From positions 1-58,707 of the forward strand of contig JBDGZR010000014.1 of assembly GCA_039588495.1 (NCBI GenBank): a stretch of DNA of 58,707 nt. The letters are read 5' to 3'. Under the pieces are notes generated by a model. It was not told where the DNA came from. It worked only from the letters and a program-made list of their open reading frames with translations, and did not search any database. Below are positions 5,463-29,573 of the stretch, in pieces. This DNA is from Gemmatimonadota bacterium. Its GTDB lineage: Bacteria > Gemmatimonadota > Gemmatimonadetes > Palauibacterales > Palauibacteraceae. The stretch's first letter is position 1. Each line of letters begins with the position of its first letter. A program made the position numbers and the translations under genes.

Positions 5463-7235
5463 ATGAAGTTCGGTGACATGGCGGGATCAGACGTCCAGCG
5501 TCGCAGTCCGGTGTTGGGAGGGCTGACCGGAGCGGTTTTTCTCTCCTTGGCTGTCCTGGTGGCGGCCTGCGCGGACCGTTCGGCGGGAGATGGAGAGGAG
5601 GGGGACGCACCATCGGCGGGTGAGGCAGGGGCCGGCGAGCTGGACGCAGCCATGCTCGTGGCGCGCTACGCCGCGCCGGTCGAGGGCCAGCCGGGCTCCG
5701 TGACGCTTTACGACGACCTCGGAGCCTACCATAAGGAGATCACGACGAGCTCGTCCGAAGCCCGGGGCTACTTCGACCAGGGACTGCGGCTCCAGTACGC
5801 GTTCAACCACGCCGAGGCGATCCGCGCCTACGAGGAGGCGCTCCGCTACGATCCCGACTGCGCGATGTGCTGGTGGGGAATCGCGCTGGCCTCCGGCAAC
5901 AACATCAACGCGCCGATGGACCCGGAGAGCGGGCGAAGAGCCTACGCGGCAGCTCAGCGGGCGTTGGAACTGGCCGACGACGCGAGTGCCGGCGAGCGTG
6001 CCCTCATCGAAGCCCTTACCCATCGCTACGGCCTCGACCCGGAGGCGGAGCGGGTCGCTCTCGACTCGGCCTACGCGCGTGCGATGGGCGGCGCGGCCGA
6101 ATCGCATCCCGAGGATGGCGACGTGCTCACGCTCTACGCCGCCTCGCTCATGAACCTGAGCCCGTGGGCCTACTGGGAGGGGGAGGAGCCGCGGCCGGGC
6201 ACGGACGAGATCGTGGGGTCGCTTACTCGAGCGCTTGAGCTCGATCCGGACAATCCCGGCGCCTGCCACTACTACATCCACTCCGTGGAAGCCGCGTTCC
6301 CGGAGCGCGCGGTCGAGTGCGCCGATCGGCTGGCGGCCCTCATGCCGGGAGCCGGCCACATCGTCCACATGCCCGGCCACATCTATATCCGCGTCGGCCG
6401 CTACTCCGATGCGGTCCGCGCGAACGAGCACGCCGTGCACGCGGACGAGGGATACATCCAGGATCAGCGACCGGTGGGCCTGTATCCGAGCGCCTACTAC
6501 CCGCACAACTACCACTTCATGTGGTTCGCCGCGACGATGGCGGGCATGAGCGAGAAGGCGATCGACGCCGCCCGAACGGTGGCTCCCAAGGTGCCGCACG
6601 ACGTGGCGGAGCAAATCTACTGGATCCAGACCGTGCTTGTCCTTCCGCAGCTCGCCTATCTGACTTTCGGTCGCTGGGAGGACGTGCTCGAAGCTCCGAT
6701 GCCCGCATCGGATCTTCATACGGCGACCACGATGGCACACTACGCGCGCGGCATCGCCTTTGCCGCGACGGCGCAGGGCGCGGAGGCGGCGGCCGAGCTC
6801 GACGCGATCGATCTTCTCATGGCCGAGCAGGCAATCCCGGAGGACGAGCAGGGTCCGAACGCCGTCATCATGATCGCTCGGCACTCTCTGGCCGGCGAGA
6901 TCGCGCTACGCAACGCAGACGCGGCGGGCGCGGTCGAGCACTTCCGCGCGGCAGCCGAGATCGAGGACGGCATGATCTACGAGGAGCCACCCCTCTGGTA
7001 TCTTCCGGTGCGTCACTCGCTCGGCCGCGCACTTCTCGAGGCAGGGCTCCCGGCCGAAGCCGAGGAAGTCTACCTGCAGGATCTCGAGCGCTTCCCCGAG
7101 AACGGCTGGGCACTGTTCGGGCTCACGCAGGCTCTGCGGGCACAGGGGAAGGCCGCCGCGGCGGACGAGGCGGAGGGCCGGTTCCGCGAAGCCTGGTCAG
7201 GAGCCGACGTGGAGCTCACCGCGTCGAGGTTCTGA
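5463..7235 (+). CDS. Lipoprotein with TPR-like repeats, function unknown
   Basis: ATG at 5463. Signal/lipobox-like LSLAVLVAAC. Helical repeat-like segments (EAIRAYEEALRYDPDCAMCWWG...). G/C third-position bias holds throughout. Confidence 0.8.
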   Translation: MKFGDMAGSDVQRRSPVLGGLTGAVFLSLAVLVAACADRSAGDGEEGDAPSAGEAGAGELDAAMLVARYAAPVEGQPGSVTLYDDLGAYHKEITTSSSEARGYFDQGLRLQYAFNHAEAIRAYEEALRYDPDCAMCWWGIALASGNNINAPMDPESGRRAYAAAQRALELADDASAGERALIEALTHRYGLDPEAERVALDSAYARAMGGAAESHPEDGDVLTLYAASLMNLSPWAYWEGEEPRPGTDEIVGSLTRALELDPDNPGACHYYIHSVEAAFPERAVECADRLAALMPGAGHIVHMPGHIYIRVGRYSDAVRANEHAVHADEGYIQDQRPVGLYPSAYYPHNYHFMWFAATMAGMSEKAIDAARTVAPKVPHDVAEQIYWIQTVLVLPQLAYLTFGRWEDVLEAPMPASDLHTATTMAHYARGIAFAATAQGAEAAAELDAIDLLMAEQAIPEDEQGPNAVIMIARHSLAGEIALRNADAAGAVEHFRAAAEIEDGMIYEEPPLWYLPVRHSLGRALLEAGLPAEAEEVYLQDLERFPENGWALFGLTQALRAQGKAAAADEAEGRFREAWSGADVELTASRF

Positions 7236-7273
7236 CCTCCACGTCCGACGATACCCGAGGGACGGGAGGAGAG

Positions 7274-7861
7274 ATGGAGAAGACGGCGGCAGGGCTCGCT
7301 CCCGTGATCACGGCCGAGAGGGCGGAGAAGATCCGAACGGCGGTGGAGCGAGGCATGCAGGTCATGGAGCGGCGTGACACGGTCGGCCGAGGCACCGCGA
7401 TCACCAGGGTGCGCACGATCGATGGCTTGACCTGCGAGGTGGAGGACGGATCCTGGAACCTCACCGTGGACATGAGCTCCAAGGGGGGAGGCGAGGGCCG
7501 GGGACCGGACCCTGGTGTGCTGGGTCGTGGCGCGCTCGGCTCCTGCCTGGCGATCGCGTACGGCATCTGGGCCTCCCGGCGCGGCGTCCCGATCACGGCG
7601 CTCGAGGTCGAGGTACAGGCCGATTACGACGTGCGTGGGCAGTACGGCATGGATGAGAGCGTCCCGGTCGCCTACGGCGAAGTCCGCTACGTCATCTCGG
7701 TCACGAGCGACGCGCCCGAGTCCGAGGTTCTCGCGGCCCTCGAGGACGCCGAGGCGCACTGCGTGTACCTGAAGATCTTCACGGAGCCGCAGCGCGTTCG
7801 CCGCGAGGTCAGGTACATGAGGCCCGAAAGCCGGGCGGGAGGAACGCAACAGGATGGATGA
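7274..7861 (+). CDS. OsmC/Ohr family protein
   Basis: ATG at 7274 with GGGAGGAGAG upstream. OsmC-like pattern with two Cys (GALGSCLAIAYG ... EAHCVYLK). Only the 3' third of track ORF 6317..7861 is protein-like. Confidence 0.85.
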   Translation: MEKTAAGLAPVITAERAEKIRTAVERGMQVMERRDTVGRGTAITRVRTIDGLTCEVEDGSWNLTVDMSSKGGGEGRGPDPGVLGRGALGSCLAIAYGIWASRRGVPITALEVEVQADYDVRGQYGMDESVPVAYGEVRYVISVTSDAPESEVLAALEDAEAHCVYLKIFTEPQRVRREVRYMRPESRAGGTQQDG

Positions 7862-7899
7862 CAGACTCCAACGCCGGATTCAGCGCTAAGGCTGGGACA

Positions 7900-7922
7900 G
7901 GTCGGCCGAAACCGGCCTGACC
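7900..7922 (+). terminator. GC-rich hairpin downstream of the OsmC-family gene
   Basis: GGTC-GGCCG / CGGCC-(T)-GACC: 9 bp stem with a 1-nt bulge and an AAAC loop, 39 nt after the stop. There is no clear U-tract. Confidence 0.4.
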
Positions 7923-8013
7923 GCGTCTCCGTAGTTGATGGCATGACTCGCCCCCGTGCGGGCGCGGGTCCAGAAGCGGGACGGGCTGGCAACCAACGGC
8001 GGCGAGCGGAGAG

Positions 8014-10497
8014 ATGACGGGCGGCAGAGGCGGCAGCAGAGGAGGCTTTCGGCAGACACTCACGAGGCTGGCGCGAAGCCCCGGCTTCACGACGATAACG
8101 GTCCTTACCCTCGGGATCGGCATCGGAGCCAACACGGCTATCTTCAGCGTCGTCAACGGGATCCTCCTCCGGTCCCTTCCGTACCCCGACCCCGGCCGAC
8201 TCGTCGGCCTGTGGCACACGGCTCCCGGCATCGACATCCCGATCTTCGAGCAATCCGACGGCTCCTATCTCTATTACGAGAGCGAGAATCGGACACTCGA
8301 AAGCATGGGGATCTTCGGGAACACATCGGTGAACCTGACCGGCGGTGAGGAGCCGGAGCGTGTCGACGCCGCGTTCGTGACCTCCACCCTGTTCTCGACG
8401 CTGGGAATCGTTCCGGAGCATGGCCGAAGCCTGATCGAGGCCGACAACGAGCCGGGTGCGGAAGCTGTCGTCATACTCGGCCACGGCCTGTGGAGCAGGA
8501 GGTTCGGAAGCGACCCCGCCATCCTCGACAAAACGGTTCTCATCGACGGCGAAGCACACAGGGTGATCGGCATCATGCCGGTGGACTTTTCCCTGCCGGT
8601 CAGCGACTCCGAGCTCTGGACGGCCCTCGAGATCGACCCTGCCGAGGCCACCACCGGCAGCTTCCGCTGGTTTTCCGTCGGCCGCTTGAAGCCCGGCGAG
8701 TCGGCGGAGAGCGCCCAACGCGATCTGGATCGACTGAGAGGGAGGCTTCCGGAGGCATATCCGGGCGACTTCCTGACCGCGCAGATGATGGAGACCGCGC
8801 AGATGGAGGCGATCGTCCATCCGCTCATCGAGGATGTGATCGGGGACGAGAATCTGGAGCGGTCGCTCTGGATCCTGCTCGGGACCGTGTTCTTCGTCCT
8901 GCTGATCGCCTGCGCCAACGTGGCGAGCCTGTTTCTGGTCCGGGCGCAAAGCCGGCACAGGGAGGTCGCGCTGCGGGTGGCTCTCGGAGCGGGAAGGAAG
9001 CGCCTCGCGCGGTTCTTCCTCTCCGAGAGCCTGATCCTGGCCCTGGCCGGCGGCGCCCTGGGTCTGCTGCTGGCCTTCGCGGCGACCCGGATTCTCGTGC
9101 TGCTGGGCCCCGACAGCATTCCCAGGCTGGAGGCGATCGGCATCGACGTAACCGTGCTCGCATTCACCTTGGCAGTCTCCCTGCTGGCCGGCCTGCTGTT
9201 CGGTTCCTTCCCGCTCCTGCGCTACGCACGGGCGAACATGGTGATGGCACTCAAGGAGGGAGGGCGTGGCGGAGGTACGGGACGCGAGCGCGACCGCGCG
9301 CGTAAGCTCCTCGTCCTGTCACAGCTGGCGATGGCGTTCGTCCTCGTCGCCGGGGCCGGCCTCATGACCCGGAGCTTTCAGAAGGTGCGGGACGTGGACC
9401 CCGGATTTGAGGCCGAGGGAACCCTGACGTTCAGGGTCTCCCTGCCGAACGCTGAGTACGATTCGCGCGCGTCCATCGGCGGATTCTACGGCCAGCTGAT
9501 CGAGCGGCTGGAAGGGCTTCCCGGCGTCACCCACGTGGGGGCCGGCAGCAAGCTTCCGCTCCGTCAGAGCGGACACAACATGAGCATCGTCTCGATCGCG
9601 GATCACCCCGTCGACCCGGGGGACCTCCCACCGGTGTCGAACTCGCAATACGTGACGGCGGGCTTCCTGGAGACGCTCGAGGTCCCCCTGCTGGAGGGCC
9701 GAACCTTCGATCGGGCGGACCATTTCTCGAACACGCGGGCGGTCGTCGTCAATCGCCCCTTCGCCGAGCGGCACTGGCCGGGAGAGAGCGCGCTCGGGAA
9801 GCGCGTCCACCCGAGCCTGGCGGACGATGAGCCGCCGTGGCTGCAGGTCGTTGGCGTCGTCGGGGGAGTGCGGGACTACACGCTGCCGGAGGAGCCGGAG
9901 CCGATTATCTACTACCCGGTTACCGGGGTCGAGGAGCTGGAAGACTTATTCTGGCCGCTGTCCATGAGCCTCGTTTTACGGACCGAAGCGCCGCCGGCCT
10001 CGCTCGCTCCTCTCGTCCGCGCTCAGGTTCGCGAGCTGGACCCGAACCTCCCCGTAGCGGATGTGTCGACGATGGAGGAGGTGGTCTCCGAGTCTACGTC
10101 GCAGCTCGGATTCGCCATGTTGCTGCTGGCCGTCGCCGCCGCCATCGCTCTGCTGCTGGCGGCGATCGGCATCTATGGCGTGATGTCCTACGACGTGACC
10201 CGGCGCACCCGGGAGATCGGGGTTCGGATGGCCCTCGGCGCGCAGTCGGCCGCCGTGAGCGCCATGGTCGTGAAGCAGAGCGCGACGATCGCCGCGATCG
10301 GCTTGGCGGTCGGGCTGGCCGGCGCCTTCGGCCTCACGCGCCTGATGCGGGCGCTGCTCTTCGGCGTGAGCCCGATGGATCCAGCTACGCTCGGCTTCGT
10401 GCTCCTGACGCTCTTCGGCGTGGCGCTGCTGGCCAGCTACCTGCCGGCCCGCCGGGCCGCCGCCGTGGATCCGCTCGTCGCGCTGCGGGCAGACTGA
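8014..10497 (+). CDS. Duplicated FtsX-family ABC transporter permease (MacB-like, ADOP type)
   Basis: 827 aa. Two modules, each a TM helix, a large periplasmic domain and an FtsX 4-TM block. N-terminus FRQTLTRLARSPGFTTITVLTLGIGIGANTAIFSVVNG is typical of this family. Confidence 0.9.
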   Translation: MTGGRGGSRGGFRQTLTRLARSPGFTTITVLTLGIGIGANTAIFSVVNGILLRSLPYPDPGRLVGLWHTAPGIDIPIFEQSDGSYLYYESENRTLESMGIFGNTSVNLTGGEEPERVDAAFVTSTLFSTLGIVPEHGRSLIEADNEPGAEAVVILGHGLWSRRFGSDPAILDKTVLIDGEAHRVIGIMPVDFSLPVSDSELWTALEIDPAEATTGSFRWFSVGRLKPGESAESAQRDLDRLRGRLPEAYPGDFLTAQMMETAQMEAIVHPLIEDVIGDENLERSLWILLGTVFFVLLIACANVASLFLVRAQSRHREVALRVALGAGRKRLARFFLSESLILALAGGALGLLLAFAATRILVLLGPDSIPRLEAIGIDVTVLAFTLAVSLLAGLLFGSFPLLRYARANMVMALKEGGRGGGTGRERDRARKLLVLSQLAMAFVLVAGAGLMTRSFQKVRDVDPGFEAEGTLTFRVSLPNAEYDSRASIGGFYGQLIERLEGLPGVTHVGAGSKLPLRQSGHNMSIVSIADHPVDPGDLPPVSNSQYVTAGFLETLEVPLLEGRTFDRADHFSNTRAVVVNRPFAERHWPGESALGKRVHPSLADDEPPWLQVVGVVGGVRDYTLPEEPEPIIYYPVTGVEELEDLFWPLSMSLVLRTEAPPASLAPLVRAQVRELDPNLPVADVSTMEEVVSESTSQLGFAMLLLAVAAAIALLLAAIGIYGVMSYDVTRRTREIGVRMALGAQSAAVSAMVVKQSATIAAIGLAVGLAGAFGLTRLMRALLFGVSPMDPATLGFVLLTLFGVALLASYLPARRAAAVDPLVALRAD

Positions 10498-10641: not shown

Positions 10642-12207
10642 TTGAAGAGGCTCCGCGTCGGTGTCGTCGACCTCGTAGCCAGGGCCCCCACCAAGGCGCT
10701 TTACGCCCGCGTTCTGCACCCCAGCCTGGCCGGACTCATGCCGCAGGCGGTCGCCGCCTGGGTCGAAGAGATGGGGCATGACGTTCACTACGTGTGCTTT
10801 ACCGGCTTCGAAGACCTCGTCGAGGAGCTGCCCTCCGACACCGATATCATCTTCATAAGCGCCTTTTCGCAGGCCGGGCAGCTCGCCTACGCCGTGAGCA
10901 ACATGTTCCGCTCACGGGGAGCCGTGACCGTCCTCGGCGGGCCGCATGCGCGCTGCTACCCGGACGACGCGCGGAAGTACTTCGACTTCGTCCTCGGACT
11001 CACCGACCGATCGATCATCGAGGAAGTGCTGCGCGACCACGCGCCCCACCGCCCGTTCGGGGTCCACCTGACGGCGGACCAGCAGCCTCGACATCTGCCG
11101 GGCGTTAGAGAGCGCTGGAAGTTCATCAAGCCGACGCTGGACAAGGCGCCCACGAGCGTGAAGGGCGTGCCGATGATCGCCAGCCTCGGCTGCCCCTACA
11201 CCTGCAGCTTCTGCATCGACTCGACGATCAAGTACCAGCCGCTCGGGACCGAACAGATTAAGGAAGATCTGAAGTTCCTCGTCGGCGAGATGCCGAACGC
11301 GTGGGTCGGATGGCACGACCCCAACTTCGGGGTGCGCTTCGACGAGTATATGGACGCCATAGAGGAAGGAAGCGCCGGCGGCAACCTCACCCATGGTGCG
11401 GAGAGCAGCCTGTCGCTCCTATCGGAGCCACGTCTCAAGCGGCTGCGCGACGCGGGTTTCAAGGCGATACTCCCGGGCGTCGAGTCATGGTACACGCTGG
11501 GAGACAAGTCGAAGATGCGCAGTGAGGTGGGGATGGAGAAGGTCAGGAGGGTGTCGGACCATGTGAACATGATCCTCGACTACATCCCTTACGTTCAGAC
11601 CAACTTCGTCCTCGGGCTCGACAGCGATGCCGGACCGGAACCGTTCGAGCTCACCAAGCGCTTCATCGACCTCGCCCCTGGGGCTTTCCCGGGCTACTCG
11701 CTGCTCTCCGCCTTCGGCGAGGCCGCTCCGCTCAACCTGGAGTTCCAGAGGGAGGGCCGGGTCCTGCCGTTCCCGTTTCACTTCCAGAACAACCACCAGG
11801 CCATGAACGTCCGCCCGAAGAACTACGACTGGCCGGAGTTCTACGAGCAGGTGATTGGTCTCACGAAGTACAGCTTCTCGTGGAAAGCGATCGCCCGTCG
11901 TGCGAAGGCGACCCAACGCAGCTTCGCCACCTGGATGAACGTCGTACGGGCAATCTCCTCCGAGGGCTTCGGCCGGGCCAAGTACTTCGCGACGCTGTTG
12001 GACGGGCTGGAGAGCGACCTCTCCATGCGGAGGTTCTTCGAGGGCGAGACTCGGGAGCTGCCCGCTTTCTTCGTCGATCGCCTCCGAGACGATCTCGGGC
12101 CGATGTGGGAGTGGCTGCCCGAGGGTGCGTTGCACCACGACCCCAACGCCTACCTCAAGAAGATGAACGGGGACATGCCCGCCGTGAAGGCCGTCGCGGG
12201 CGGATAG
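10642..12207 (+). CDS. B12-binding-domain radical SAM protein
   Basis: TTG start. N-terminal Rossmann-like B12-binding-type domain. CxxxCxxC cluster motif GCPYTCSFC. 521 aa. Confidence 0.85.
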   Translation: MKRLRVGVVDLVARAPTKALYARVLHPSLAGLMPQAVAAWVEEMGHDVHYVCFTGFEDLVEELPSDTDIIFISAFSQAGQLAYAVSNMFRSRGAVTVLGGPHARCYPDDARKYFDFVLGLTDRSIIEEVLRDHAPHRPFGVHLTADQQPRHLPGVRERWKFIKPTLDKAPTSVKGVPMIASLGCPYTCSFCIDSTIKYQPLGTEQIKEDLKFLVGEMPNAWVGWHDPNFGVRFDEYMDAIEEGSAGGNLTHGAESSLSLLSEPRLKRLRDAGFKAILPGVESWYTLGDKSKMRSEVGMEKVRRVSDHVNMILDYIPYVQTNFVLGLDSDAGPEPFELTKRFIDLAPGAFPGYSLLSAFGEAAPLNLEFQREGRVLPFPFHFQNNHQAMNVRPKNYDWPEFYEQVIGLTKYSFSWKAIARRAKATQRSFATWMNVVRAISSEGFGRAKYFATLLDGLESDLSMRRFFEGETRELPAFFVDRLRDDLGPMWEWLPEGALHHDPNAYLKKMNGDMPAVKAVAGG

Positions 12208-12347: not shown

Positions 12348-13241
12348 CTAGGGGCAGATGACTCCGCTGTATTCGTATGTGCTCGTGAATGTGGGCGGGA
12401 AGTTGGCACCGTCGATGGTCCGTTGCACCGCGAGATCGCCGCGTCCGGGATAACGCACCCGGAGGCGGCCGGTGAAGTCGACGACGGCTCCCGGCCCGGG
12501 CTCGACCAGACTCACGTAATCTCCCCAGAGCTTCAGATCCCTTCCGACAAGTTCAGGGACGGTGCCGCTGGTGATCGAAACGGCATGGACCGCGGGCATG
12601 TGCCACTCGCCGCCACTCCGGCTCGCACGGCCAGCCAAGCTGAAGGTGGTCCCCTCGAGATCGCCCTCGATCGTTCCCAGCCAATTCGTCTCGCCGATTG
12701 AGCCGCGAACGGCGACTGGGTCTCCGTGCGCGGCGAGCGTGTTGATCTCGGAGGCGAGGCCGAAATAGGCGGGCCGAATCTCCCGGGCGATCGCCAGGGC
12801 GTAGGATTCGTGGATCGCCCGGATCTCCGGCTCGAGGATGCTGCGGCCCGCTTCCGTCAGCTCGGGCGGCTCCGAGGTTCTGTCGAGCCCGTCGAGGGGG
12901 TCGAGGAGAAAGACCATCTCGAGTCCCAGTGCCTCCAGGAAGTAGGCGAGTCCTTTCGTTTCGGCGACCAGCTCGTCGAGCTCCTCGCCGGCGAAGAGCC
13001 GCTCCCATGGCACGGCCTGTTGGATGATCGCGTACTCCGCCACCTCGGCCATCGCTTGCGCGGTTGCGATAATGCTCGCCTCGGTGGGCTCGGGCGGTAT
13101 CAGGCCCCAACCCATCGCGTACGTGCGGGGTTCGGCACCAGGAGGAGGAGGCCCGGACGGACCCTCCGGCGGATCTCCACCGCCGCAGGCGGGTGGCAGC
13201 ATCACGAGTAGGGCGAGGCAACCGAAGAGACGACGAGGCAT
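12348..13241 (-). CDS. Hypothetical lipoprotein
   Basis: ATG at 13241. Signal MPRRLFGCLALLVMLPPAC (lipobox-like). Coding-type G/C3 bias. I recognise no family. Confidence 0.6.
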   Translation of the reverse strand: MPRRLFGCLALLVMLPPACGGGDPPEGPSGPPPPGAEPRTYAMGWGLIPPEPTEASIIATAQAMAEVAEYAIIQQAVPWERLFAGEELDELVAETKGLAYFLEALGLEMVFLLDPLDGLDRTSEPPELTEAGRSILEPEIRAIHESYALAIAREIRPAYFGLASEINTLAAHGDPVAVRGSIGETNWLGTIEGDLEGTTFSLAGRASRSGGEWHMPAVHAVSITSGTVPELVGRDLKLWGDYVSLVEPGPGAVVDFTGRLRVRYPGRGDLAVQRTIDGANFPPTFTSTYEYSGVICP

Positions 13242-13307: not shown

Positions 13308-13333
13308 GAAAGCCCCGCCGAAGCGGGGCTTTC
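13308..13333 (-). terminator. Rho-independent-type terminator after the 13383..14150 gene
   Basis: 11-bp stem GAAAGCCCCGC / GCGGGGCTTTC with a 4-nt loop. On the minus strand it is followed by GCTTTGCGG. Confidence 0.65.
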
Positions 13334-13382: not shown

Positions 13383-14150
13383 CTATTCTGGTGCCGGTTT
13401 GGTGATCTGCCTCTCCCAGATGTAGTCCGTGTGCGAGTCGCAGATCTCGCTGAATCGGTCGAGCGCGATCGGGTTCTCCTCGAACAGGTCCTCGAAGATC
13501 GCGCTTCTCGCGGCGAGCAGAGAGTTCAGGTCTACGGCGTCGATCACCGAGATCCTGCGGTACTGGCCGCCGATGTTGTGCTCCAGCCAGCCCCAGCTGG
13601 TGATCGTCCCCTCTTCCACGTGCTTGTTGTAGACGTCCGCGAATACGTTCTCGACGATACGGGACGCGCGGTCCTCCTCCGTGAAATCGCACACCATGTA
13701 CGTGGACAGCGACACGGACGGACGACCCTGCGCGAGCGTGGGATCGGAGGCCGCGGCCATCGTCCAGACGTAGTCGTCGTGTGACGGGCAGACCTGGGTC
13801 AACTCTTCGGACGCTTCCCCGGCTTCCGCGATCATGTCATCGATCAGGGCGTCGCGGGCGGTCATGACCGAGGGGACGTCGGCCGACACCATGTAAAGCA
13901 AGCGGCGCCAGTGGCCGCCGGTGTGGTGGGAGTACCAGCCCCAGGCGCTGATGGCGCCGCTGTCGATGTGCCGATCCAGGATCGGCCCGATGCTCTCGGC
14001 GATGATCGTGTCCGCTCGAGCCTCCTTCGACTCGTTGCAGTGGAAGTAGACACCGAAAACGGCGGGATCCGGCACGTCATCCTGTGCGAGAGCCGGCACC
14101 GGCGCCAACAGAGCGCACAGCGCCGCCGCGAGGGTGAGTCGCGACTTCAT
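13383..14150 (-). CDS. Secreted protein with two tandem ~115-aa domains, unknown family (paralog A)
   Basis: Signal peptide MKSRLTLAAALCALLAPVPALAQ. Internal duplication; each half carries C..ADxI..G.I[ST].W[GS]W..H..GG.[WY]RR..C.[SA]H.DY[IV]W. It is a paralog of 28598..29362. Confidence 0.8.
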   Translation of the reverse strand: MKSRLTLAAALCALLAPVPALAQDDVPDPAVFGVYFHCNESKEARADTIIAESIGPILDRHIDSGAISAWGWYSHHTGGHWRRLLYMVSADVPSVMTARDALIDDMIAEAGEASEELTQVCPSHDDYVWTMAAASDPTLAQGRPSVSLSTYMVCDFTEEDRASRIVENVFADVYNKHVEEGTITSWGWLEHNIGGQYRRISVIDAVDLNSLLAARSAIFEDLFEENPIALDRFSEICDSHTDYIWERQITKPAPE

Positions 14151-14195
14151 GTGATCCTCCTTGGGATGGGACGGGACGATTAGCGCAGTCGGCCC
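14151..14195 (-). promoter_or_regulatory. Conserved 5' leader shared with the paralog at 29363..29404
   Basis: The 24-nt block GATCCTCCTTGGGATGGGACGGGA (plus strand, 14153-14176) is identical to 29365-29388. It includes the AAGGAGGATC SD on the minus strand and is followed by a shared GCAGTCG(G)CCC. Confidence 0.6.
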
Positions 14196-14334
14196 AAGGG
14201 TACGAGCGCCGGCGCCTCTCGGGCAATCCCCCTGCCGTGCCGCGCCAAATCACGCTCATGTTCGGACCGGGCCCCTGGCCAAGCCCGGACGGAATCCCTG
14301 GTCCCGCGTGGACGCGGGAGGTTAATTCTGAGCC

Positions 14335-15204
14335 ATGAGCGCCCAATCCGAGATCGGAGCCCTGCGGCGTATGGTGCTGAAGCACCCTCGCGAGGCTTTC
14401 GTCAGCGACCTGTCGATCGCTCGCCAGTGGCGGGACCTGGGATACCTCGGCCGACCCGAGCTCCACCGTGCCGTGGATGAGTTCGACGCCCTGGTCGAGC
14501 TGCTCGAGGGCTTCGGGATCGAGGCCCTCTTTCTTCCTCGAGACGACGATGTCGGTCTGGACTCCCTCTACGTGCGGGACGCCGCGGTCGCGACGGACGA
14601 CGGACTGATCCTCTGCAACATGGGAAAGGATGAGCGGCGGACAGAGCCCGGGGCTTTGGAGAGAGCGGTGGGCGAATGGGGACTCCCGATTCGAGGTGCC
14701 ATCACCGGAGACGGTATCCTCGAGGGCGGAGACGTCGTGTGGATCGACGACCGGACGCTCGCCGTCGGGCGTGGCTATAGGACGAACGAGGAGGGGATCC
14801 GCCAGCTCGGGGAGATCCTGGGCGACAGCATCGACGAGCTGGTCGTCGTTCCACTACCCCACCACCGCGGCCCGAACGACGTCTTTCACCTGATGTCCGT
14901 GCTTAGCCCTATCGACAGGGACCTGGCGCTCGTCTACTCGCCGCTGCTCCCGGTGCCGTTTCGCGAGTGGCTGCTCGCGCGCGGTACATGGCTCGTCGAG
15001 ACTCCCGAGGGCGAGTTCGATTCTCTCGGCTGCAACCTCCTCACTTTGGCTCCCCGGCGGTGCGTGGCGGTCGCGGGGAATCCGGCAACTCTTGGGCGGC
15101 TCGAATCCGCAGGCGTGGAAGTCCACGTCCTGCGTGGCCAGGAGATGTGCCTCAAGGGGCTCGGCGGCCCCACCTGCTTGACCCGGCCCCTGGAACGAGG
15201 CTAG
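14335..15204 (+). CDS. Dimethylarginine dimethylaminohydrolase / amidinotransferase-superfamily hydrolase
   Basis: 289 aa. Guanidino-modifying-enzyme pattern with the C-terminal nucleophile motif GLGGPTCLTRPL, plus an internal HLMSV. Confidence 0.78.
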   Translation: MSAQSEIGALRRMVLKHPREAFVSDLSIARQWRDLGYLGRPELHRAVDEFDALVELLEGFGIEALFLPRDDDVGLDSLYVRDAAVATDDGLILCNMGKDERRTEPGALERAVGEWGLPIRGAITGDGILEGGDVVWIDDRTLAVGRGYRTNEEGIRQLGEILGDSIDELVVVPLPHHRGPNDVFHLMSVLSPIDRDLALVYSPLLPVPFREWLLARGTWLVETPEGEFDSLGCNLLTLAPRRCVAVAGNPATLGRLESAGVEVHVLRGQEMCLKGLGGPTCLTRPLERG

Positions 15205-15240
15205 CGGGCCTTCGGGTCGGCCCCGACGTCGAGCCCCGGC

Positions 15241-16833
15241 CTACCGGGCGTGCTTCCCGGCCCGGAGCACCTCCCGCGCGGCGTTGTACCCGGCCGTGCC
15301 GCCGACCCCACCACCCGGATGGGTGCCCGCGCCGCACAGGTAGAGATCCCGAATCGGCGTTCGGTATTGGGCGCATTCGGGAACGGGCCGCATGAAGAAG
15401 AGCTGGTCGAGCGCCATCTCCCCGTGGGATGCGCACCCTCCGGCGAGCCCGTACACATCCTCGAGATCCGCCGGCGTGGCCACATGCCGGTCGAGAACCG
15501 CCTGGTCGATGCCCGGCGCGTACTCGGAGAGCGTCTCCACGACGCGATCGCCCAGCGCCTCTCTCCGATCCGCGTCCCAGCACCCCTCCTTCAGCTCGTA
15601 GGGAGCGTACTGGACGTAGACCGACATCGCGTGCTGTCCCGGTGGAGCGAGGGTCGGGTCGGTCAGGGAGGGGATAACGGCCTCCAGGTAGGGAGAGCGG
15701 GACACCCCTCCGTACTTGGCGTCGTCGTACGCCCGCTCCAGATAGTCGAGGCTGGGGCTGATGCGGACGACGCCCTCGAGGAGCTCCGGGTGGTCGGCCG
15801 TTCCGCCGAACCGGGGAAGCTCCGCCAGCGCCAGGTGCACCTTCGCGAACGCGCCCCGGGTGCGGATGTTCTTCACCTTCCTGACGAACTCGGGATCCAG
15901 CTCGGTCGGCTCGACGAGCCCGAGGAAGGTGCGCTTCGGGTCCGCGTTGGACACGACCCGAGCGGCGTCGATCTCTTCGCCGTCGCTCAGAACGACCCCG
16001 GTGACACTCCCTTCCGTGGTGCGGATCCGCTCGATCTCGGCGCCGGTGCGGATGCGAGCGCCATTGGCCAGGGCGGCCTCTGCCAGGGCTTCGGTAAAAC
16101 TGCCCATCCCGCCGGTGACGAGCTCGGTCCTTCGCAGCACCTCGGCCTCGGGCGACAGCCCGCCCAGCAGCAGGTAGGCCGTGCCGGACGCCCGCGGGCC
16201 GAGGAAGATCCCGCTCACGCCAAGCGCGGCCAGGAGTCCCTGCAGCGGCTCCGATTCGAACCACTCATCCAGCAGCTCGGCGGCCGACATCGGCAGCACG
16301 CGCAGGACCTCGGTCAGCTCCCTCCGCCCCAGACGACGCAGGCGCAGACCCAGCTCCATGAAGGCCAGAAGATCCCGCGAGGCGGCGGGTGGAAGTTCGG
16401 GAGGCGTCGTCGAGGCCACGTGTCGCAGAAACCGGACCGCTGGAGCCATCGCGGCGCCGAAGCGCGACCACCGTGCCGCATCGTCCGGGGAGTGACGTCG
16501 AATCTCTTCCGCCGTCTTCTCCGGATCCCGCCAGATGGCGAGGTGGTCTCCGCCTGGAAGGGGCGCCAGAACGGCGAGGTCCGGTCGCCGAACCTCCAGA
16601 CCTTGACCACCGAGCCCGAGGTCTCGGACCACGCGGCGATCCAGGTGCCCGAGCCGGTGCGCGCAGCTATCGAAGCGGAAGCCGGGGAAGAGCTCTTCCG
16701 TGACGGCCGCACCCCCCACGACCTCGCGACGCTCCAAAATGAGGACGCTCAAGCCGGCCCGCGCCAGATAGGCGGCGCAGACCAGCCCGTTGTGACCGGC
16801 TCCGACGAGCACCGCGTCGTATCTCTCGCTCAC
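15241..16833 (-). CDS. FAD-dependent oxidoreductase, PYROXD2 / COG1233 (phytoene-desaturase-related) type, copy 1
   Basis: GTG at 16833 overlaps the upstream stop (GTGA). N-terminal dinucleotide fold YDAVLVGAGHNGLVCAAYLARAG. C-terminal GAGTHPGGGV. About half its residues match the adjacent copy by eye. Confidence 0.85.
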   Translation of the reverse strand: MSERYDAVLVGAGHNGLVCAAYLARAGLSVLILERREVVGGAAVTEELFPGFRFDSCAHRLGHLDRRVVRDLGLGGQGLEVRRPDLAVLAPLPGGDHLAIWRDPEKTAEEIRRHSPDDAARWSRFGAAMAPAVRFLRHVASTTPPELPPAASRDLLAFMELGLRLRRLGRRELTEVLRVLPMSAAELLDEWFESEPLQGLLAALGVSGIFLGPRASGTAYLLLGGLSPEAEVLRRTELVTGGMGSFTEALAEAALANGARIRTGAEIERIRTTEGSVTGVVLSDGEEIDAARVVSNADPKRTFLGLVEPTELDPEFVRKVKNIRTRGAFAKVHLALAELPRFGGTADHPELLEGVVRISPSLDYLERAYDDAKYGGVSRSPYLEAVIPSLTDPTLAPPGQHAMSVYVQYAPYELKEGCWDADRREALGDRVVETLSEYAPGIDQAVLDRHVATPADLEDVYGLAGGCASHGEMALDQLFFMRPVPECAQYRTPIRDLYLCGAGTHPGGGVGGTAGYNAAREVLRAGKHAR

Positions 16834-18416
16834 GGCCGGTGCTCTTTCAGGATCTGCTGGGCCGCCAGCCGCCCGGGGGCGCCGCACACACCACCACCCG
16901 GATGGGTGCCGGAGCCGCACTGGTACAGGTTCGCGAGCGGCGTGCGGTAGTTCGCCCAGGCCGGTGCGGGGCGCAGGAAGAAGAGCTGATGCAAGGAGAG
17001 CTCGCCGTGGAAGATGTTTCCCTCGGTGAGTCCGAACGTCTCCTCCATGTCAGCCGGCGTGACGACCTGCCGGTGGATGATGGCGTCCCTGACGTTGGGC
17101 GCGAAACGGCAGAGGGTGTCGATGACCGTGTCGCCGAACGCCTCGCGCCTCTCGTCATCCCAGCCGCCATTCAGCGCGTACGGAGCGTACTGCACGAAGA
17201 TCGACATCACGTGCTGGCCCGGCGGCGCCATGCTCGGGTCGATCATCGAGGGGATGATGATGTCCATGTAGGGACGACGCGAGAACTCGCCGTATTTGGC
17301 ATCGTCGTACGCCCGCTCCAGGTATTCGACGCTGGGACTGATCGACATGGCACCGCGCAGGTGCGGCCCGACGCCCGGCAGCGCCGTGAAATCGGGTAGC
17401 TCGGCCAGCGCGAGGTTCACCTTGCCGGACGATCCGCGGATCCGGAAGCGCCGGATCGAGTCTACGAACTCGGACGGCAGCTCATCCGGCTCGAGCAGCC
17501 CGAGAAAGGTCCGCTTGGGATCCAGGCCGGACACGACGAGGCGCGCCCTGATCTCCTCGCCGCTCTCCAGAGCGACGCCGACCGCTCTGCCACCCTCGTT
17601 GAGGATCCTCTCGACGGACGCCTCCGTCCTGATCTCAGCCCCCAGGCTTCGTGCCGCGGACGCGATCGCCTCGCTCACCGCTCCGGTCCCTCCACGCGCG
17701 AACCCCCAGGCGCGGAACGCACCGTCGATCTCGCCCATGTAGTGGTGGAGGAGCACGTACGCGGTACCGGGTGATCTCGGGCCGAGAAAGGTGCCGATGA
17801 TCCCGCTGGCCGCCATCGTAGCCTTCAGCGCCTCCGTTTCGAACCACTCGTCGAGGTAATCGGCCGAGCTCATGGTCATCAGCTTCACGAGAGCGGTGAG
17901 CTTCTCGCTTCCCAGATCGCGAAAGTGGCGCCCCAGGCGGGCCATCTTGGCCAGGTTTCCGGGTCTCATGGATCCGGGGTCAGGCGGTGCCATGCCGAGG
18001 ATCGGCTTTACGGCCATCGCGAGCTGGAGCATCAGCTGGCCGAACTCGTCGTACGCCTCCGCGTCACGCGGAGAGTGGCGGTAGATCTGCCGCCGGGTCT
18101 GATCGTGGTCGGCCCAGCGGACCAGATAGTCGTCGTTCGGAAGCGGCGTGAACGTGCTCTCGAGCGGCAGGATCTCGAGACCGTGTCGGGCGAGCTCCAG
18201 ATCCTGGATGATCTCGGGTCTGAGCAGGCTTACCACGTAGGAGCACACGCAGTACTTGAACCCGGGGTAGACCTCCTCCGTTACGGCAGCGCCTCCCAGC
18301 ACCGGCCGTCTCTCCAACACCAGGACATCGAGACCGGCGCGCGCCAGGTAGGCGGCGTTGACGAGGCCGTTGTGTCCGCCCCCGACGATCACGGCGTCGT
18401 AGTCCCGAGGCTTCAC
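16830..18416 (-). CDS. FAD-dependent oxidoreductase, PYROXD2 / COG1233 type, copy 2
   Basis: GTG at 18416 overlaps the upstream stop (GTGA). YDAVIVGGGHNGLVNAAYLARAG; VTEEVYPGFKYCVCSYVVSLLRPEIIQDLELARHGLEI closely resembles human PYROXD2 as I recall it. C-terminal GSGTHPGGGV. Confidence 0.85.
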   Translation of the reverse strand: MKPRDYDAVIVGGGHNGLVNAAYLARAGLDVLVLERRPVLGGAAVTEEVYPGFKYCVCSYVVSLLRPEIIQDLELARHGLEILPLESTFTPLPNDDYLVRWADHDQTRRQIYRHSPRDAEAYDEFGQLMLQLAMAVKPILGMAPPDPGSMRPGNLAKMARLGRHFRDLGSEKLTALVKLMTMSSADYLDEWFETEALKATMAASGIIGTFLGPRSPGTAYVLLHHYMGEIDGAFRAWGFARGGTGAVSEAIASAARSLGAEIRTEASVERILNEGGRAVGVALESGEEIRARLVVSGLDPKRTFLGLLEPDELPSEFVDSIRRFRIRGSSGKVNLALAELPDFTALPGVGPHLRGAMSISPSVEYLERAYDDAKYGEFSRRPYMDIIIPSMIDPSMAPPGQHVMSIFVQYAPYALNGGWDDERREAFGDTVIDTLCRFAPNVRDAIIHRQVVTPADMEETFGLTEGNIFHGELSLHQLFFLRPAPAWANYRTPLANLYQCGSGTHPGGGVCGAPGRLAAQQILKEHRP

Positions 18417-19615
18417 GGGGCGTTCTCCATCGCGCGTTTGCGGGGCGGGTCGTAGAACGGCTTGTTCACGACCCTCGCCTCGGCCCGCTTTCTCCGATGC
18501 TCGACGGTCACCTCCATCTCCAGCCGCGTACCCGGGCCTGCCCACCCGGTCCGGAGATGAGCCAGGGCGATGTACTGCTTGAGAACCGGCGACCAGCAAC
18601 CGCTCGTCGCGTATCCGACCTGCTCTCCCCCCGAGTAGACCGGAACCGATGTGCGCCACGCGGTGGTCGGGAGCCCGGGCGGCAGCCCGGCCTCGGCGTA
18701 GAGCCGCTCGATCGAATCCCACTCGATCTCCAAGCCCTGGAACTGCCACTCCGGTTCTCTCTCCTTCTCCGCCGCAAGGGCCTGGCGGCCCACGAACGGG
18801 CCCTTGTCAAGCTTTACGGTCCAGCCGAGATCCAACTCGAAGGGCGAGGATTTGCGCTCCTCGATCAGCGCCTTGTTCGCGGGGATGTAGTCGACGTCGA
18901 TGAGCGGCAGCCCGGCCTCGATCCTCGCCACATCCAGCGCCAATATGCCGGCCGGAATCAGACCGTACGCGGCTCCGGCCTCTACGAGCCCGTCCCAGAG
19001 AGCCACGGCCTGAGCCGCCTCGACCCAGAGCTCGTACCCGAGGTCACCCGTGTAACCAGTGCGGGAGATGGTTGCCGGGATGCCGGCCACCCGGGCGTGG
19101 GTGAGCTTGAAGAAGCCCAGGTCGCCCAGCGGGACATCCGATATCCCCTGGAGGATCTCCCGCGAGGCGGGCCCCTGGAGCGCGAGCGCCGCCAGCGCCT
19201 CGGTGATGTCCCCGATCGTGACATCGAGGCCGGTGGATACATCCTGCAGCCAGCGCAGGTTCGGCTCCGCCGCCGTGAGGCGAAAAGCATCCGGGTCGAG
19301 ACGTGACAGCGTCCCGTCATCGATGACCTTGCCCGCCTGATCGCACCAGGGGGTGTACAGAACCTGGTGCACCGCGCAGCGGGCGACGTCGCGGGGGATA
19401 AGGCGATTCAGAAAGCGCTCCGCATCGGGCCCGGTGACGTGGTACTTGTACAGAGGCGAGACGTCGATCAGCGCGGCGGCGGTGCGGATCGCGAAGTACT
19501 CGCGATCGTGAAGGAGTTCGTACGAGCCGGCCACGATATAGCCGGCCCAACGACGCCAGTTGTGCGCCTGGCAGAGAGCTGCGGTCCTGGCGTGGAACGG
19601 CGTGCCTCTGAGCAC
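18413..19615 (-). CDS. Aminomethyltransferase (GcvT/folate-binding) family protein, stand-alone
   Basis: GTG start with GAGAGGAGA upstream. GcvT-type motifs (ALIDVSPLYKYHVTGPDAERFLN, ISRTGYTGDLGYELW). No gcvH or gcvP nearby. Confidence 0.85.
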   Translation of the reverse strand: MLRGTPFHARTAALCQAHNWRRWAGYIVAGSYELLHDREYFAIRTAAALIDVSPLYKYHVTGPDAERFLNRLIPRDVARCAVHQVLYTPWCDQAGKVIDDGTLSRLDPDAFRLTAAEPNLRWLQDVSTGLDVTIGDITEALAALALQGPASREILQGISDVPLGDLGFFKLTHARVAGIPATISRTGYTGDLGYELWVEAAQAVALWDGLVEAGAAYGLIPAGILALDVARIEAGLPLIDVDYIPANKALIEERKSSPFELDLGWTVKLDKGPFVGRQALAAEKEREPEWQFQGLEIEWDSIERLYAEAGLPPGLPTTAWRTSVPVYSGGEQVGYATSGCWSPVLKQYIALAHLRTGWAGPGTRLEMEVTVEHRRKRAEARVVNKPFYDPPRKRAMENAP

Positions 19616-19823
19616 CGAACGTCTCCTCTCTCGTGACGCAACGGAGGCCGACCGTTCTCAGATGGCAGCCCCATCGCCGAGAAGCAAGGGCCGCGGGTGT
19701 GGATCAAGCCACGCGAGGCCGCCGAGGACTCGCGGAAGCAGCACGCTTGCCGGGCCGTACGGGCGCGGAGCATACTGGGCGCGTTCGTTCAGCCGTTCAC
19801 CGACTCACCGGATCGAGGAAGCC

Positions 19824-20777
19824 GTGGCCGGTTACGCGCGCGTCCAAGCGTTGATTGATGCGGATCGCCCCGCGCTGCTCGACGGGGCGCTGGGCAGCGA
19901 GCTCGTGCGCCGTGGCGTGCGCTGGCGCTGGCACGGCCTTCGCACCGATCCGCAGGAGGTCGCGTCGCTTCACGTCGAGTACATCGAAGCCGGGGCGGAC
20001 GTCATCCGCACCAACACCTCGCAGCTGAACCACCGACTCTACCTCAACGTCTTCCGCAGCCCGGACCACATGCGGCACATCGGAGCGCCGGGGCTGGAGA
20101 CGCGCGCCCATGAGCTCACGGTGCGGGCGGTCGATCTCGCCCGCCAGGCGCGCGACACGACCGGACGGGACGTGGCCATAGCCGGCGTCATGGCGCCGCT
20201 CGAGCACCCCTTCAGGCCGGACCTTTCCCCCGACCCGGCCGAGGCTCGCCCCGAGCACTGGCAGATCGCCTCCTGGCTCAAGGAGGGCGGCGTGGATCTC
20301 ATTCTCCTGGAATCCATGAACACCGTCGGCGAGGCACGGGCGGCGGCCGAGGCAGCAATCAGCTCCGGACTGCCGGTGTGGGCCAGCTTCGTGATCGGCC
20401 CGGAGGGCGACGTGCTCGGTGGTGACAACCTTGGAGAGTGCGCCCGGGCCATGCAGGCCCTCGGCGTGAAGGCCGTGCTGGTGAACTGCGCACCGCCGGA
20501 AGACATCGGCCCGGCCGTGAAGAGCCTGTCAGCCGAAACGGATCTGCCAATAGGTGCCTTCGCCCACATCGGCAAGTTCGACCCTCCCTCATGGAAGTTC
20601 GAGTTCCACCCGCAGTTCGCCGCTGCAGATGACTGGCCGCCCGGCCGCTACGCCGAGGCCGCCGCCGGCTGGCGAGATGCCGGAGCGCGCGTCGTGGGCG
20701 GGTGCTGCGGCACCGGACCCGCGCACGTAGCGGCACTGCGCGATGCGCTCGGCCCGGCAGCGGGGGAGGACGCATGA
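19824..20777 (+). CDS. Homocysteine S-methyltransferase-domain protein 1
   Basis: GTG at 19824 with GAGGAA upstream. LLDGALGSEL at the N-terminus, C-terminal GGCCGTGPAHV (Zn/Hcy-binding Cys motif). The upstream part of ORF 19560.. is not protein-like. Confidence 0.8.
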   Translation: MAGYARVQALIDADRPALLDGALGSELVRRGVRWRWHGLRTDPQEVASLHVEYIEAGADVIRTNTSQLNHRLYLNVFRSPDHMRHIGAPGLETRAHELTVRAVDLARQARDTTGRDVAIAGVMAPLEHPFRPDLSPDPAEARPEHWQIASWLKEGGVDLILLESMNTVGEARAAAEAAISSGLPVWASFVIGPEGDVLGGDNLGECARAMQALGVKAVLVNCAPPEDIGPAVKSLSAETDLPIGAFAHIGKFDPPSWKFEFHPQFAAADDWPPGRYAEAAAGWRDAGARVVGGCCGTGPAHVAALRDALGPAAGEDA

Positions 20778-28597: not shown

Positions 28598-29362
28598 CTA
28601 CGGCCTGGAGATCTCGACATCCCAGACGTAGTCCGTGTGAGAGTGGCAGGTCTCGGAGAAGACCCCGAGTGCTCCCTCGGCCATCTCCCCTATCTTCTCG
28701 AATATCGCGTCGCGGCCGTTCAGCACGCCGTTCACGCTCGCGCCGTCGATCACGCCGAGCCGGCGATACTTCCCGCCGACATCGTGAGAGTGCCAGCTCC
28801 AACCGGTGATCGTCCCGTCCGCGACCGCGTCGTCGAACACGCCGCTGAAGACCTGCGTGTAGATCTCGTCGGCCAGATCCTCCCTGGCGAAGTCGCACTC
28901 GAAGTACATCGAGAGCCCGAACTCCGGCCGTTGGCCGATCCCGGCCTCACCGGAGCCGCCCTCGTAGTTCCATATGTAGTCGTCGTGCGCCGGACAAATC
29001 CGGTTGAACTCCTGGACCAAGCCCGAATCGTCCGCCTGGTTTTCCTCGATCATCGCCCCTCTCGCCGTCAGAAGAGCCTCCCGCGAAGGCGCGGTGTAGT
29101 AGGCGAGGCGGCGCCACTTTCCGCCGATCCGGTGGGAGAGCCAGCCCCATGCCGTGATGTTGCCTGCCGCCAGGTGCTTGTCATAGATCGGCGCGAAGTG
29201 CTCGTTCACGATCGTGTCGGCGCGCGCCGCTTGCCCCTGGCTGCAGTAGAAGTAGGCAGCGAGGCTCGCCGGTTGATCCTCCTGCGCGGAGGCCGGGGAA
29301 GGCAGCAGCAGCGGCGTCAGCAGCGCGCCAAACCCCAGGATAAGGGAAAGTCTGGGTTTCAT
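28598..29362 (-). CDS. Secreted protein with two tandem ~115-aa domains, unknown family (paralog B)
   Basis: ATG at 29362 with AAGGAGGATCCG upstream. Signal MKPRLSLILGFGALLTPLLLPSPASAQ. Same duplicated motif set as 13383..14150. Confidence 0.8.
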   Translation of the reverse strand: MKPRLSLILGFGALLTPLLLPSPASAQEDQPASLAAYFYCSQGQAARADTIVNEHFAPIYDKHLAAGNITAWGWLSHRIGGKWRRLAYYTAPSREALLTARGAMIEENQADDSGLVQEFNRICPAHDDYIWNYEGGSGEAGIGQRPEFGLSMYFECDFAREDLADEIYTQVFSGVFDDAVADGTITGWSWHSHDVGGKYRRLGVIDGASVNGVLNGRDAIFEKIGEMAEGALGVFSETCHSHTDYVWDVEISRP

Positions 29363-29404
29363 CGGATCCTCCTTGGGATGGGACGGGAGTTTTGCAGTCG
29401 CCCT
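29363..29404 (-). promoter_or_regulatory. Conserved 5' leader shared with the paralog at 14151..14195
   Basis: Identical 24-nt block at 29365-29388, followed by GCAGTCGCCC. Confidence 0.6.
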
Positions 29405-29573
29405 ACTAGTACGCGCACTGGCCAGCACCGTCAAACCATGGTGGGGTCGTTTGCCGACCGCCGGTGGCGCTAGATTCACCCCTTCGTGCGTGGGCTTCCG
29501 TCGGAAGCGGGAACGTCCAGTTCACGCGTCTCTCCCAGGCGCCGGCCATCAGATCGAAATCGGAGGAACGAGA

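Follow-up and report, generated by a model that had tools for sequence, protein, structure and literature searches.

DABB proteins, a group of small alpha+beta barrels, carry out cofactor-free chemistry with His and Tyr in a pocket between sheet and helices, and a catalytic His, Tyr, Trp or Arg occupies the sheet-helix pocket in enzymes of the ABM, DABB, olivetolic acid cyclase (OAC) and IsdG types. Sulfur oxygenase reductase (SOR) is a cytoplasmic 24-mer of a protein of ~308 amino acids (aa) with a mononuclear iron site (H-x3-H...E) and three conserved Cys. Here we analyze two paralogous genes, A and B, in a stretch of 58,707 nucleotides (nt) from a Gemmatimonadota bacterium (GenBank assembly GCA_039588495.1, contig JBDGZR010000014.1, positions 1 to 58,707 of the forward strand), which is called the window throughout. 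They encode putative periplasmic proteins with two tandem repeats each, and their structural models resemble these barrels.

Two paralogs with predicted export signals and an internal duplication

Both genes are located on the minus strand of the window, which has a GC content of 64-69%. A six-frame search with a profile hidden Markov model (HMM) found exactly two copies of the family, paralog B with an E value of 6e-94, and A and B are 44% identical (E 3e-79). The genes and their parts are:

13383-14150, minus strand: coding sequence of paralog A (255 aa including the signal peptide; stop codon included)
14085-14150, minus strand: signal peptide of A, residues 1-22 (MKSRLTLAAALCALLAPVPALA, followed by QDD; from sequence reading and heuristic)
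13746-14072, minus strand: repeat 1 of A, residues ~27-135 (from DSSP on the AlphaFold2 model and conservation)
13395-13724, minus strand: repeat 2 of A, residues ~143-252 (from DSSP on the AlphaFold2 model, conservation and hhalign)
28598-29362, minus strand: coding sequence of paralog B (254 aa; stop codon included)
29285-29362, minus strand: signal peptide of B, residues 1-26 (MKPRLSLILGFGALLTPLLLPSPASA, followed by QED; from sequence reading and heuristic)
28952-29278, minus strand: repeat 1 of B, residues ~29-137 (from the alignment to A, offset +2 residues)
28601-28930, minus strand: repeat 2 of B, residues ~145-254 (from the alignment to A and the HMM)

The distribution of GC over the codon positions is typical of genes, with a GC content at third positions (GC3) of 0.82-0.88. 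The ATG at 29362 is immediately preceded by a perfect AAGGAGG Shine-Dalgarno sequence and a conserved leader, so this codon is the likely start of B, in preference to the GTG of a longer open reading frame (ORF) that extends to 29479.

Both N-termini consist of an n-region with K/R, a hydrophobic core of 12 aa and an AxA-type cleavage site (ALA/QDD in A, ASA/QED in B), and direct reading of the two sequences revealed neither a twin-arginine motif nor a lipobox. The signal peptides were called by a simple hydrophobicity heuristic instead of a dedicated predictor; its test for n-region and h-region was passed by 127 of the 138 full-length family members. By reading and heuristic, A and B show the features of Sec-exported soluble periplasmic proteins.

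In each paralog the signal peptide is followed by two homologous repeats of ~110 aa. When profiles of the N-terminal and C-terminal halves were compared, hhalign aligned them over 106 columns with a probability of 100% (E 7e-49), and from these sequence profiles the internal duplication is certain. The N-halves are 41% identical to one another and ~29% identical to the C-halves, so the duplication predates the split of A and B. The four repeat halves have 20 invariant columns in common, including Y..C, A..I, G.I..W.W, H..GG..RR, R.A and C..H.DY.W, and every motif is retained in both halves; in many duplicated barrels one half decays. For paralog A the motif residues are:

Repeat 1 of A: Y35, C38, D47, H75, G78, G79, W81, R82, R83, C121, H124, D126, Y127, W129
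Repeat 2 of A: Y151, C154, D163, W186, W188, H191, G194, G195, R198, R199, C237, H240, D242, Y243, W245

An alignment of 63 homologs contains 22 invariant columns. When 64 more diverse representatives were compared, strict invariance was limited to the four Cys, and Y35, D47, G65, H75, G78, W81, H124, D126, Y127 and W129 are conserved in at least 90%, as are most of their equivalents in repeat 2. Y35 and the RR pair are replaced in the distant members P0203 and P0222, which retain the Cys pair, GWG..H with the beta2 His, and C..H.D; this pattern fits a constant core with presumptive variable specificity residues. Taken together, what the preliminary description had claimed from the bare sequence of the window could be reproduced: two paralogs, Sec signal peptides on both, a tandem duplication inside each, and a set of motifs common to all four repeats, which falls within the 20 invariant columns and persists in both wider alignments.

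Homologs with a single repeat and a signal peptide of their own (131-149 aa) also occur (P0176, P0185, P0187, P0195, P0204, and positions 1737-2153 of locus L111). The gene for one of them, P0187 (138 aa), is complete and lies inside two independent contigs. These proteins score about equally against the N-half and the C-half profiles. With one repeat only, they would need to form homodimers, and they may be examples of the form from which the internal duplication arose.

Predicted fold and position of the conserved residues

Using the alignment of 63 sequences, AlphaFold2 produced a full-length model with a pLDDT of 91.4 and a pTM of 0.84; a single repeat modeled alone reached a pLDDT of 93.9. 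According to DSSP the elements follow the order beta-alpha-beta-beta-alpha(-alpha)-beta, twice in the full-length protein and once in the single repeat. Repeat 2 of A contains the same beta-alpha-beta-beta-alpha-beta unit as repeat 1, whose elements are:

Residues 30-37: beta1
Residues 40-63: alpha1
Residues 69-77: beta2
Residues 83-89: beta3
Residues 92-120: alpha2/3
Residues 123-134: beta4

Foldseek was run against the PDB with the full-length model and with one repeat. The full-length neighbors, at 7-13% identity, comprise the anthrone-oxidase-like protein 5f9p (E 5e-9), the putative monooxygenases 3f44 and 3mcs, 2pgc, coproheme decarboxylase and SOR, all of these with a probability of 1.00, and in addition PenE (9kdp) and chlorite dismutase; 2pgc reached a template modeling (TM) score of 0.73 on the target at a root-mean-square deviation (rmsd) of 3.6 A. 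Alignments of the full-length model to tandem or dimeric members of the superfamily span 230-250 columns (TM 0.55-0.73, probability 1.00). The single repeat, at 4-16% identity, found DABB hydroxynitrile lyase, NIPSNAP (1vqy, TM 0.71-0.77), the ABM protein Rv0793, IsdG, IsdI and OAC. In the models the beta-alpha-beta-beta-alpha-beta unit is present and, as judged from the alignments and the pTM, two units are packed sheet-to-sheet as a barrel within one chain. The models thus support a structural assignment of A and B to the dimeric alpha+beta barrel superfamily (SCOP d.58.4, Pfam clan Dim_A_B_barrel), a fold that had been guessed from the spacing of the predicted elements. Fold and export are the part of our interpretation in which we have high confidence.

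DSSP also locates the conserved residues. In repeat 1, C38 stands at the end of beta1 and C121 two residues before beta4, which is opened by H124, D126, Y127 and W129. H75 closes beta2, G78-G79 form the turn between beta2 and beta3, and W81, R82 and R83 open beta3, with R45, A46 and D47 early in helix alpha1. The strand order of a ferredoxin-like sheet is 4-1-3-2 and makes beta1 and beta4 antiparallel neighbors, so that the end of beta1 is expected beside the start of beta4. This adjacency, together with the strict invariance of the Cys and the export of the protein, fits one disulfide per repeat, from the Cys at the end of beta1 to the Cys before beta4, which we consider likely. The other conserved residues would gather at the same end of the sheet, as suggested by their DSSP positions, and since both repeats keep the full set of residues two equivalent sites are expected.

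An uncurated family under purifying selection

A single-sequence search of 5.8 billion proteins matched 79 clusters with E values down to 1e-150; all of them are named hypothetical, and none of the 79 carries a family-relevant Pfam domain. The family is small: in a profile search of 1.84 billion representatives at 50% identity, 544 proteins were found at E<=1e-3 and 129 at E<=1e-30, most of them ~250 aa long. Relatives are encoded in 290 stretches of a set of 185,579 species genomes. The 80 best of these 290 stem exclusively from metagenome-assembled genomes (MAGs), with no cultured isolate, and belong to Gemmatimonadota, Acidobacteriota (Sulfomarinibacteraceae, Thermoanaerobaculia, Vicinamibacteria, Holophagae), Gammaproteobacteria (Steroidobacteraceae, Lysobacterales) and a few other groups. 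The samples originate chiefly from marine or estuarine sediment, mangrove and soil.

Searches of Pfam-A, NCBIfam and PDB sequences with the single sequences, two profiles and 64 members one by one gave nothing above threshold. Sub-threshold matches to GCE_fung and Lant_dehydr_C (in 5 of 64 members) and to thiopep_ocin (E 0.012) were treated as chance noise, and no weak Pfam family recurs meaningfully among the 64 members. A single-repeat profile run against the 5.8 billion proteins returned family members only, none of them with a family-related Pfam annotation, and a full-text literature search found no account of such a family. The view that the family was unrecognised therefore holds at the sequence level, where no confident match to a characterised family appeared, and the fold is that of a well-known superfamily: the sequence family is uncurated and new at the family level, with a fold that is already known. 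Its combination of two fully conserved repeats, an invariant Cys pair in each of them and an export signal is likewise uncurated.

The closest relative of the window is the contig CAMYMV010000013.1 of an uncultured Gemmatimonadales MAG (~90% nucleotide identity). In two related MAGs (CAMYMV010000013.1 and CAZEBA010000007.1) both paralogs lie ~15 kb apart on one contig. Compared with orthologs, the ratio of nonsynonymous to synonymous substitution (dN/dS) is 0.15-0.40 for A and 0.21-0.34 for B; both paralogs are under purifying selection. Metatranscriptome contigs cover parts of gene A at low depth and are too sparse to define a transcript start.

Paralog B evolves faster than A, since against the closest MAG contig the protein identity is 81% for B and 96% for A, and dN/dS is 0.26 and 0.17, respectively, while the flanks are equal at ~90% in both regions. 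Paralogy is common in the family: tandem pairs of family genes on the same strand are found in a Gemmatimonadales MAG (L013) and a Steroidobacteraceae MAG (L082), and several other MAGs have two copies on separate contigs.

A common promoter and leader region

Directly upstream of both start codons lies an identical sequence of 23 nt, CCCGTCCCATCCCAAGGAGGATC, at 14153-14175 (A) and 29365-29387 (B). The window contains no other copy with up to 3 mismatches, and none appeared in 100 shuffles. When the upstream regions of 8 A-orthologs and 6 B-orthologs were aligned with the two copies of the window, four conserved blocks separated by variable spacers emerged: a -35-like box (TTGCCC/TTGACG), a -10-like box (TAC...T), CGACTGC, and a C-rich tract followed by AAGGAGG. 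The boxes were read from the alignment and were not called by a consensus promoter scanner. In the window the aligned regions are:

14151-14226, minus strand: promoter and leader of A, with the -35-like TTGCCC at 14226-14221, the -10-like TACCCT at 14202-14197, CGACTGC at 14191-14185, and the C-rich tract with AAGGAGG at 14175-14156
29363-29434, minus strand: promoter and leader of B, with the -35-like TTGACG at 29434-29429, the -10-like TACTAG at 29411-29406, CGACTGC at 29400-29394, and then the C-rich tract with AAGGAGG

The coding regions of A and B have diverged to 44% aa identity with an apparent synonymous divergence (dS) of ~0.83, which is near saturation. Conservation of the leader in spite of this divergence shows that selection acts on it, and co-regulation and strong translation of the two paralogs are probable. 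The boxes (TTGACG...CGTAC) might, by their sequence, fit an alternative sigma factor of the extracytoplasmic function (ECF) type.

Among 241 million metagenome records the core of 19-20 nt has exact matches in 25 stretches, 14 of which precede family genes of the clade. A function as a regulon motif was rejected: the other 11, which precede another gene or none, have neither CGACTGC nor the promoter blocks of the extended region and are apparently chance matches. A structured RNA was also rejected, since the leader has no Rfam match and its fold is not more stable than shuffled controls (z +0.4 to +0.6). A riboswitch is less likely than a special class of promoter or a site bound by a protein or small RNA.

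Proposed role and alternative explanations

We tentatively favor a role as an enzyme or ligand pocket, although we would place it somewhat below an even chance. A and B would be Sec-exported periplasmic proteins in which the two ferredoxin-like repeats, arranged in tandem, together build a single pseudo-dimeric alpha+beta barrel. The disulfide from the Cys that ends beta1 to the one before beta4 would probably brace each repeat. One end of the sheet in each repeat would present the beta2 His, the Trp-Arg-Arg at the start of beta3, the His-x-Asp-Tyr-x-Trp of beta4 and the Arg-Ala-Asp of alpha1, lining a pocket for a small molecule between sheet and helices, as ABM and DABB enzymes have it; the two pockets of the protein would be equivalent. 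Their most likely function would be to convert a small periplasmic compound by cofactor-independent acid/base or oxygen-dependent chemistry, or at the least to bind it tightly, and the Arg pair would suggest an anionic or aromatic compound. The paralogs would be co-regulated through the common promoter and leader and probably differ in their substrates. The disulfide, the location of the pocket, the catalysis and the nature of the ligand are what we infer here. A more ambitious version, which seems unlikely to us, would see in the family a new enzyme class, cofactor-free and periplasmic, with both of its symmetric active sites in one disulfide-stapled alpha+beta barrel. In sediment and soil bacteria such an enzyme would act on a small and possibly anionic or aromatic compound, and in Gemmatimonadota its control would run through a dedicated promoter and leader element that the paralogs share and to which a regulator binds.

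Several points weigh against such a role. No ligand, cofactor or activity can be deduced, and many members of the superfamily are not enzymes. The proximity of the Cys and the clustering of residues at the pocket are derived from DSSP and strand order and not from the coordinates of the model, and the charged residues (Asp of alpha1, Arg-Arg of beta3) could form a structural salt-bridge network instead of a binding site. The genomic context points to no pathway either. Genes were called in 86 sequences (85 loci and the window), and the neighbors of 85 family genes in 82 of them were clustered: across these 82 loci there is no universal neighbor or conserved operon partner, and the neighbors differ between lineages. 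The sole true operon is confined to one gammaproteobacterial group.

A rival explanation, which we consider doubtful, is a non-catalytic periplasmic protein, an abundant, very stable, disulfide-braced barrel with a stress-protective, chaperone-like or ligand-buffering function. The biochemical roles of 'stress-responsive' DABB proteins and NIPSNAP domains are mostly binding and not catalysis, and the best superpositions of the single repeat are NIPSNAP and uncharacterised dimeric ferredoxin-like proteins (TM 0.65-0.77). The gene stands alone behind its own promoter and a perfect AAGGAGG, as would be expected for an abundant protein, it has no conserved enzymatic partner, and there are several paralogs per genome as well as tandem copies. 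However, His, Asp, Tyr and Arg are nearly invariant in both repeats across three phyla, which exceeds what stability or a chaperone usually requires.

Improbable in our estimation is a metal- or heme-binding redox protein with the Cys pair and His/Asp as ligands or redox-active groups. Possible variants are a copper, zinc or iron site formed by Cys/His(/Asp), a heme pocket with the Arg pair on the propionates, and a persulfide Cys as in SOR. The full-length model matches SOR (TM on the query up to 0.66) and the chlorite dismutase/coproheme decarboxylase group, and the single repeat matches the heme oxygenases IsdG and IsdI. The C..H.D motif and the second Cys lie at the same end of neighboring strands, and lineages of marine sediment, e.g. 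Sulfomarinibacteraceae, are among those in which the family occurs frequently. These structural matches come with an identity of only 4-13%, however, and with neither a Pfam match to SOR, chlorite dismutase, DyP or ABM nor a sequence signature of IsdG. The conserved columns contain neither the HxxxH...E iron motif nor a helix His, and no heme-uptake or metal-homeostasis genes recur nearby. A Cys pair 83 residues apart in an exported protein is more simply explained as a structural disulfide.

An artefact, either chance ORFs and motifs in the GC-rich DNA of the window, which does contain many long spurious ORFs, or a family curated under another name, is practically excluded by the GC3 bias, purifying selection, hundreds of homologs in three phyla, confident AlphaFold2 models, transcripts and the lack of a curated family match.

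Genomic context of the paralogs

The genes next to A and B, and examples of the gammaproteobacterial operon, are located as follows:

14335-15204, plus strand: ADI/DDAH-like gene of the amidinotransferase superfamily, divergent from A (Pfam ADI/DDAH_eukar)
29574 (ATG)-30422, plus strand: gene of the dienelactone hydrolase family with a signal-peptide-like N-terminus, divergent from B (Pfam DLH)
12348-13241, minus strand: lipoprotein gene directly downstream of A, the conserved +1 neighbor of A-orthologs
6001-8889 of locus L003 and 6001-8818 of locus L005: gammaproteobacterial operon

In Gemmatimonadota the divergent ADI/DDAH-like gene, followed by two FAD oxidoreductases of the CrtI family, accompanies the A-orthologs in all 10 of 10 loci. 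On the other side, a same-strand lipoprotein gene of an unknown family and a convergent B12-binding radical S-adenosylmethionine (radical-SAM) gene follow in 9 loci. The B-orthologs retain an ATP-dependent DNA ligase gene on one side; on the other they retain the divergent gene for dienelactone hydrolase together with those for an M48 peptidase and a fused TRAP DctQM transporter. The preliminary description had pointed to a divergent hydrolase gene beside each copy. Pfam confirmed both assignments (ADI/DDAH_eukar and DLH), but the pairing is limited to close Gemmatimonadota orthologs and is gone in other lineages, so a gene order kept from a common ancestor is a more probable explanation than a connection in function.

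The family gene is the first of a compact operon in one gammaproteobacterial group, where it is joined by the gene for a transporter of the major facilitator superfamily (8 loci: L003, L004, L005, L057, L061, L063, L081 and L082). A class-I SAM methyltransferase gene follows in five of the eight (L003, L004, L005, L063 and probably L082); its best NCBIfam matches are ArsM-like and UbiE-like, weak and all below the cut-off. In L003 and L004 genes of the formaldehyde-detoxification type (GFA, zinc-dependent alcohol dehydrogenase, esterase) lie divergently upstream of the operon. Elsewhere many neighbors resemble, by eye only, unrelated housekeeping genes (e.g. DnaE2, LeuRS-LptE and FabV-like).

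The surroundings of A (14335-20162 and 10642-12207) comprise the ADI/DDAH-like gene, the two CrtI-family FAD oxidoreductases and the B12-binding radical-SAM gene, and in some relatives also a GCV_T folate-binding gene, all below NCBIfam cut-offs. These conserved surroundings may form an uncharacterised pathway of their own. GCV_T-domain genes recur in three contexts, no more than chance would give for so common a domain. In the gap that separates the stop codon of A from the lipoprotein gene, a weak terminator-like hairpin (13312-13324, minus strand; 5 bp stem, T-rich tail) hints that A may be transcribed alone.

The lipoprotein gene at 12348-13241 belongs to a family without a Pfam match. Residues 1-176 match orthologs of 363 aa with 88% identity up to a breakpoint near 12713; the C-terminal half of the orthologs, which contains a VEGGW motif resembling by eye a glycosidase nucleophile, is absent from the whole window and replaced by ~120 unrelated codons. 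There the nearest MAG has 570 nt versus 498 different nt in the window. The break may stem from a rearrangement or an assembly join, or it may mark a pseudogene. In addition, ~3 kb of the window (7264-10291), containing most of a MacB/FtsX-type permease gene (8014-10497), have no counterpart in the closest MAG contig, which keeps a permease remnant of 92 aa. As the relatives L008 and L012 possess the full gene, the closest MAG probably carries a deletion.

Significance and comparison with known systems

The uncurated family has clear boundaries, invariant residues and a confident model, which justifies an entry in Pfam or as a domain of unknown function (DUF). To our knowledge, exported and disulfide-braced members of the dimeric alpha+beta barrels with both halves fully conserved seem unusual. 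The family could reveal periplasmic chemistry in Gemmatimonadota and Acidobacteriota, poorly studied phyla that are abundant in sediments, and the common leader offers a handle on the regulator and the inducing condition. If the proteins serve plainly in binding or stability, the finding is an ordinary DUF, one more such domain in a large superfamily and without a link to a pathway.

With a TM of 0.50-0.66 on the query, SOR and the chlorite dismutase/coproheme decarboxylase (HemQ) group have the same two-repeat barrel architecture. Conserved Cys and His are employed by SOR; in comparison, the mature protein of A and B is smaller (~230 aa), has no HxxxH in conserved columns and shows no Pfam match to SOR. 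Chlorite dismutase and HemQ bind heme through a helix His, whereas the conserved His of A and B are located on beta2 and beta4 and none on a helix; Pfam models of chlorite dismutase/HemQ/DyP matched neither A, B nor any of the 64 members.

The DABB proteins (Passiflora hydroxynitrile lyase 5xzq, Brassica 8s4e) are the top Foldseek matches of the single repeat (E 5e-5). They are single-domain homodimers with 11-15% identity and have no motif in common with A and B. The closest geometric fit is with NIPSNAP and 'dimeric ferredoxin-like' proteins (1vqy, 5ixu, 2op5, 2od6, 2pgc), on which the single repeat superimposes with a TM of 0.65-0.77 and an rmsd of 2.6-3.6 A at 8-13% identity and without a Pfam match; their own functions are unknown, so none can be transferred. 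With the HMMs of DABB (PF07876) and NIPSNAP (PF07978) there was no match for A, B or the 64 members, and the likeness to both groups is structural only.

The best Foldseek E values (5e-9 to 6e-7; TM 0.55-0.64, identity 7-13%) belong to the tandem ABM-like two-domain proteins (5f9p, 3f44, 3mcs and PenE 9kdp), although ABM (PF03992) gave no match at E<=10 for A, B or any of the 64 members. These proteins likewise contain two ferredoxin-like repeats in one chain of ~210-240 residues and are, as far as we know, cytoplasmic and devoid of Cys pairs. A and B, by contrast, have a signal peptide and an invariant Cys pair in each repeat, and their set of motifs is another one.

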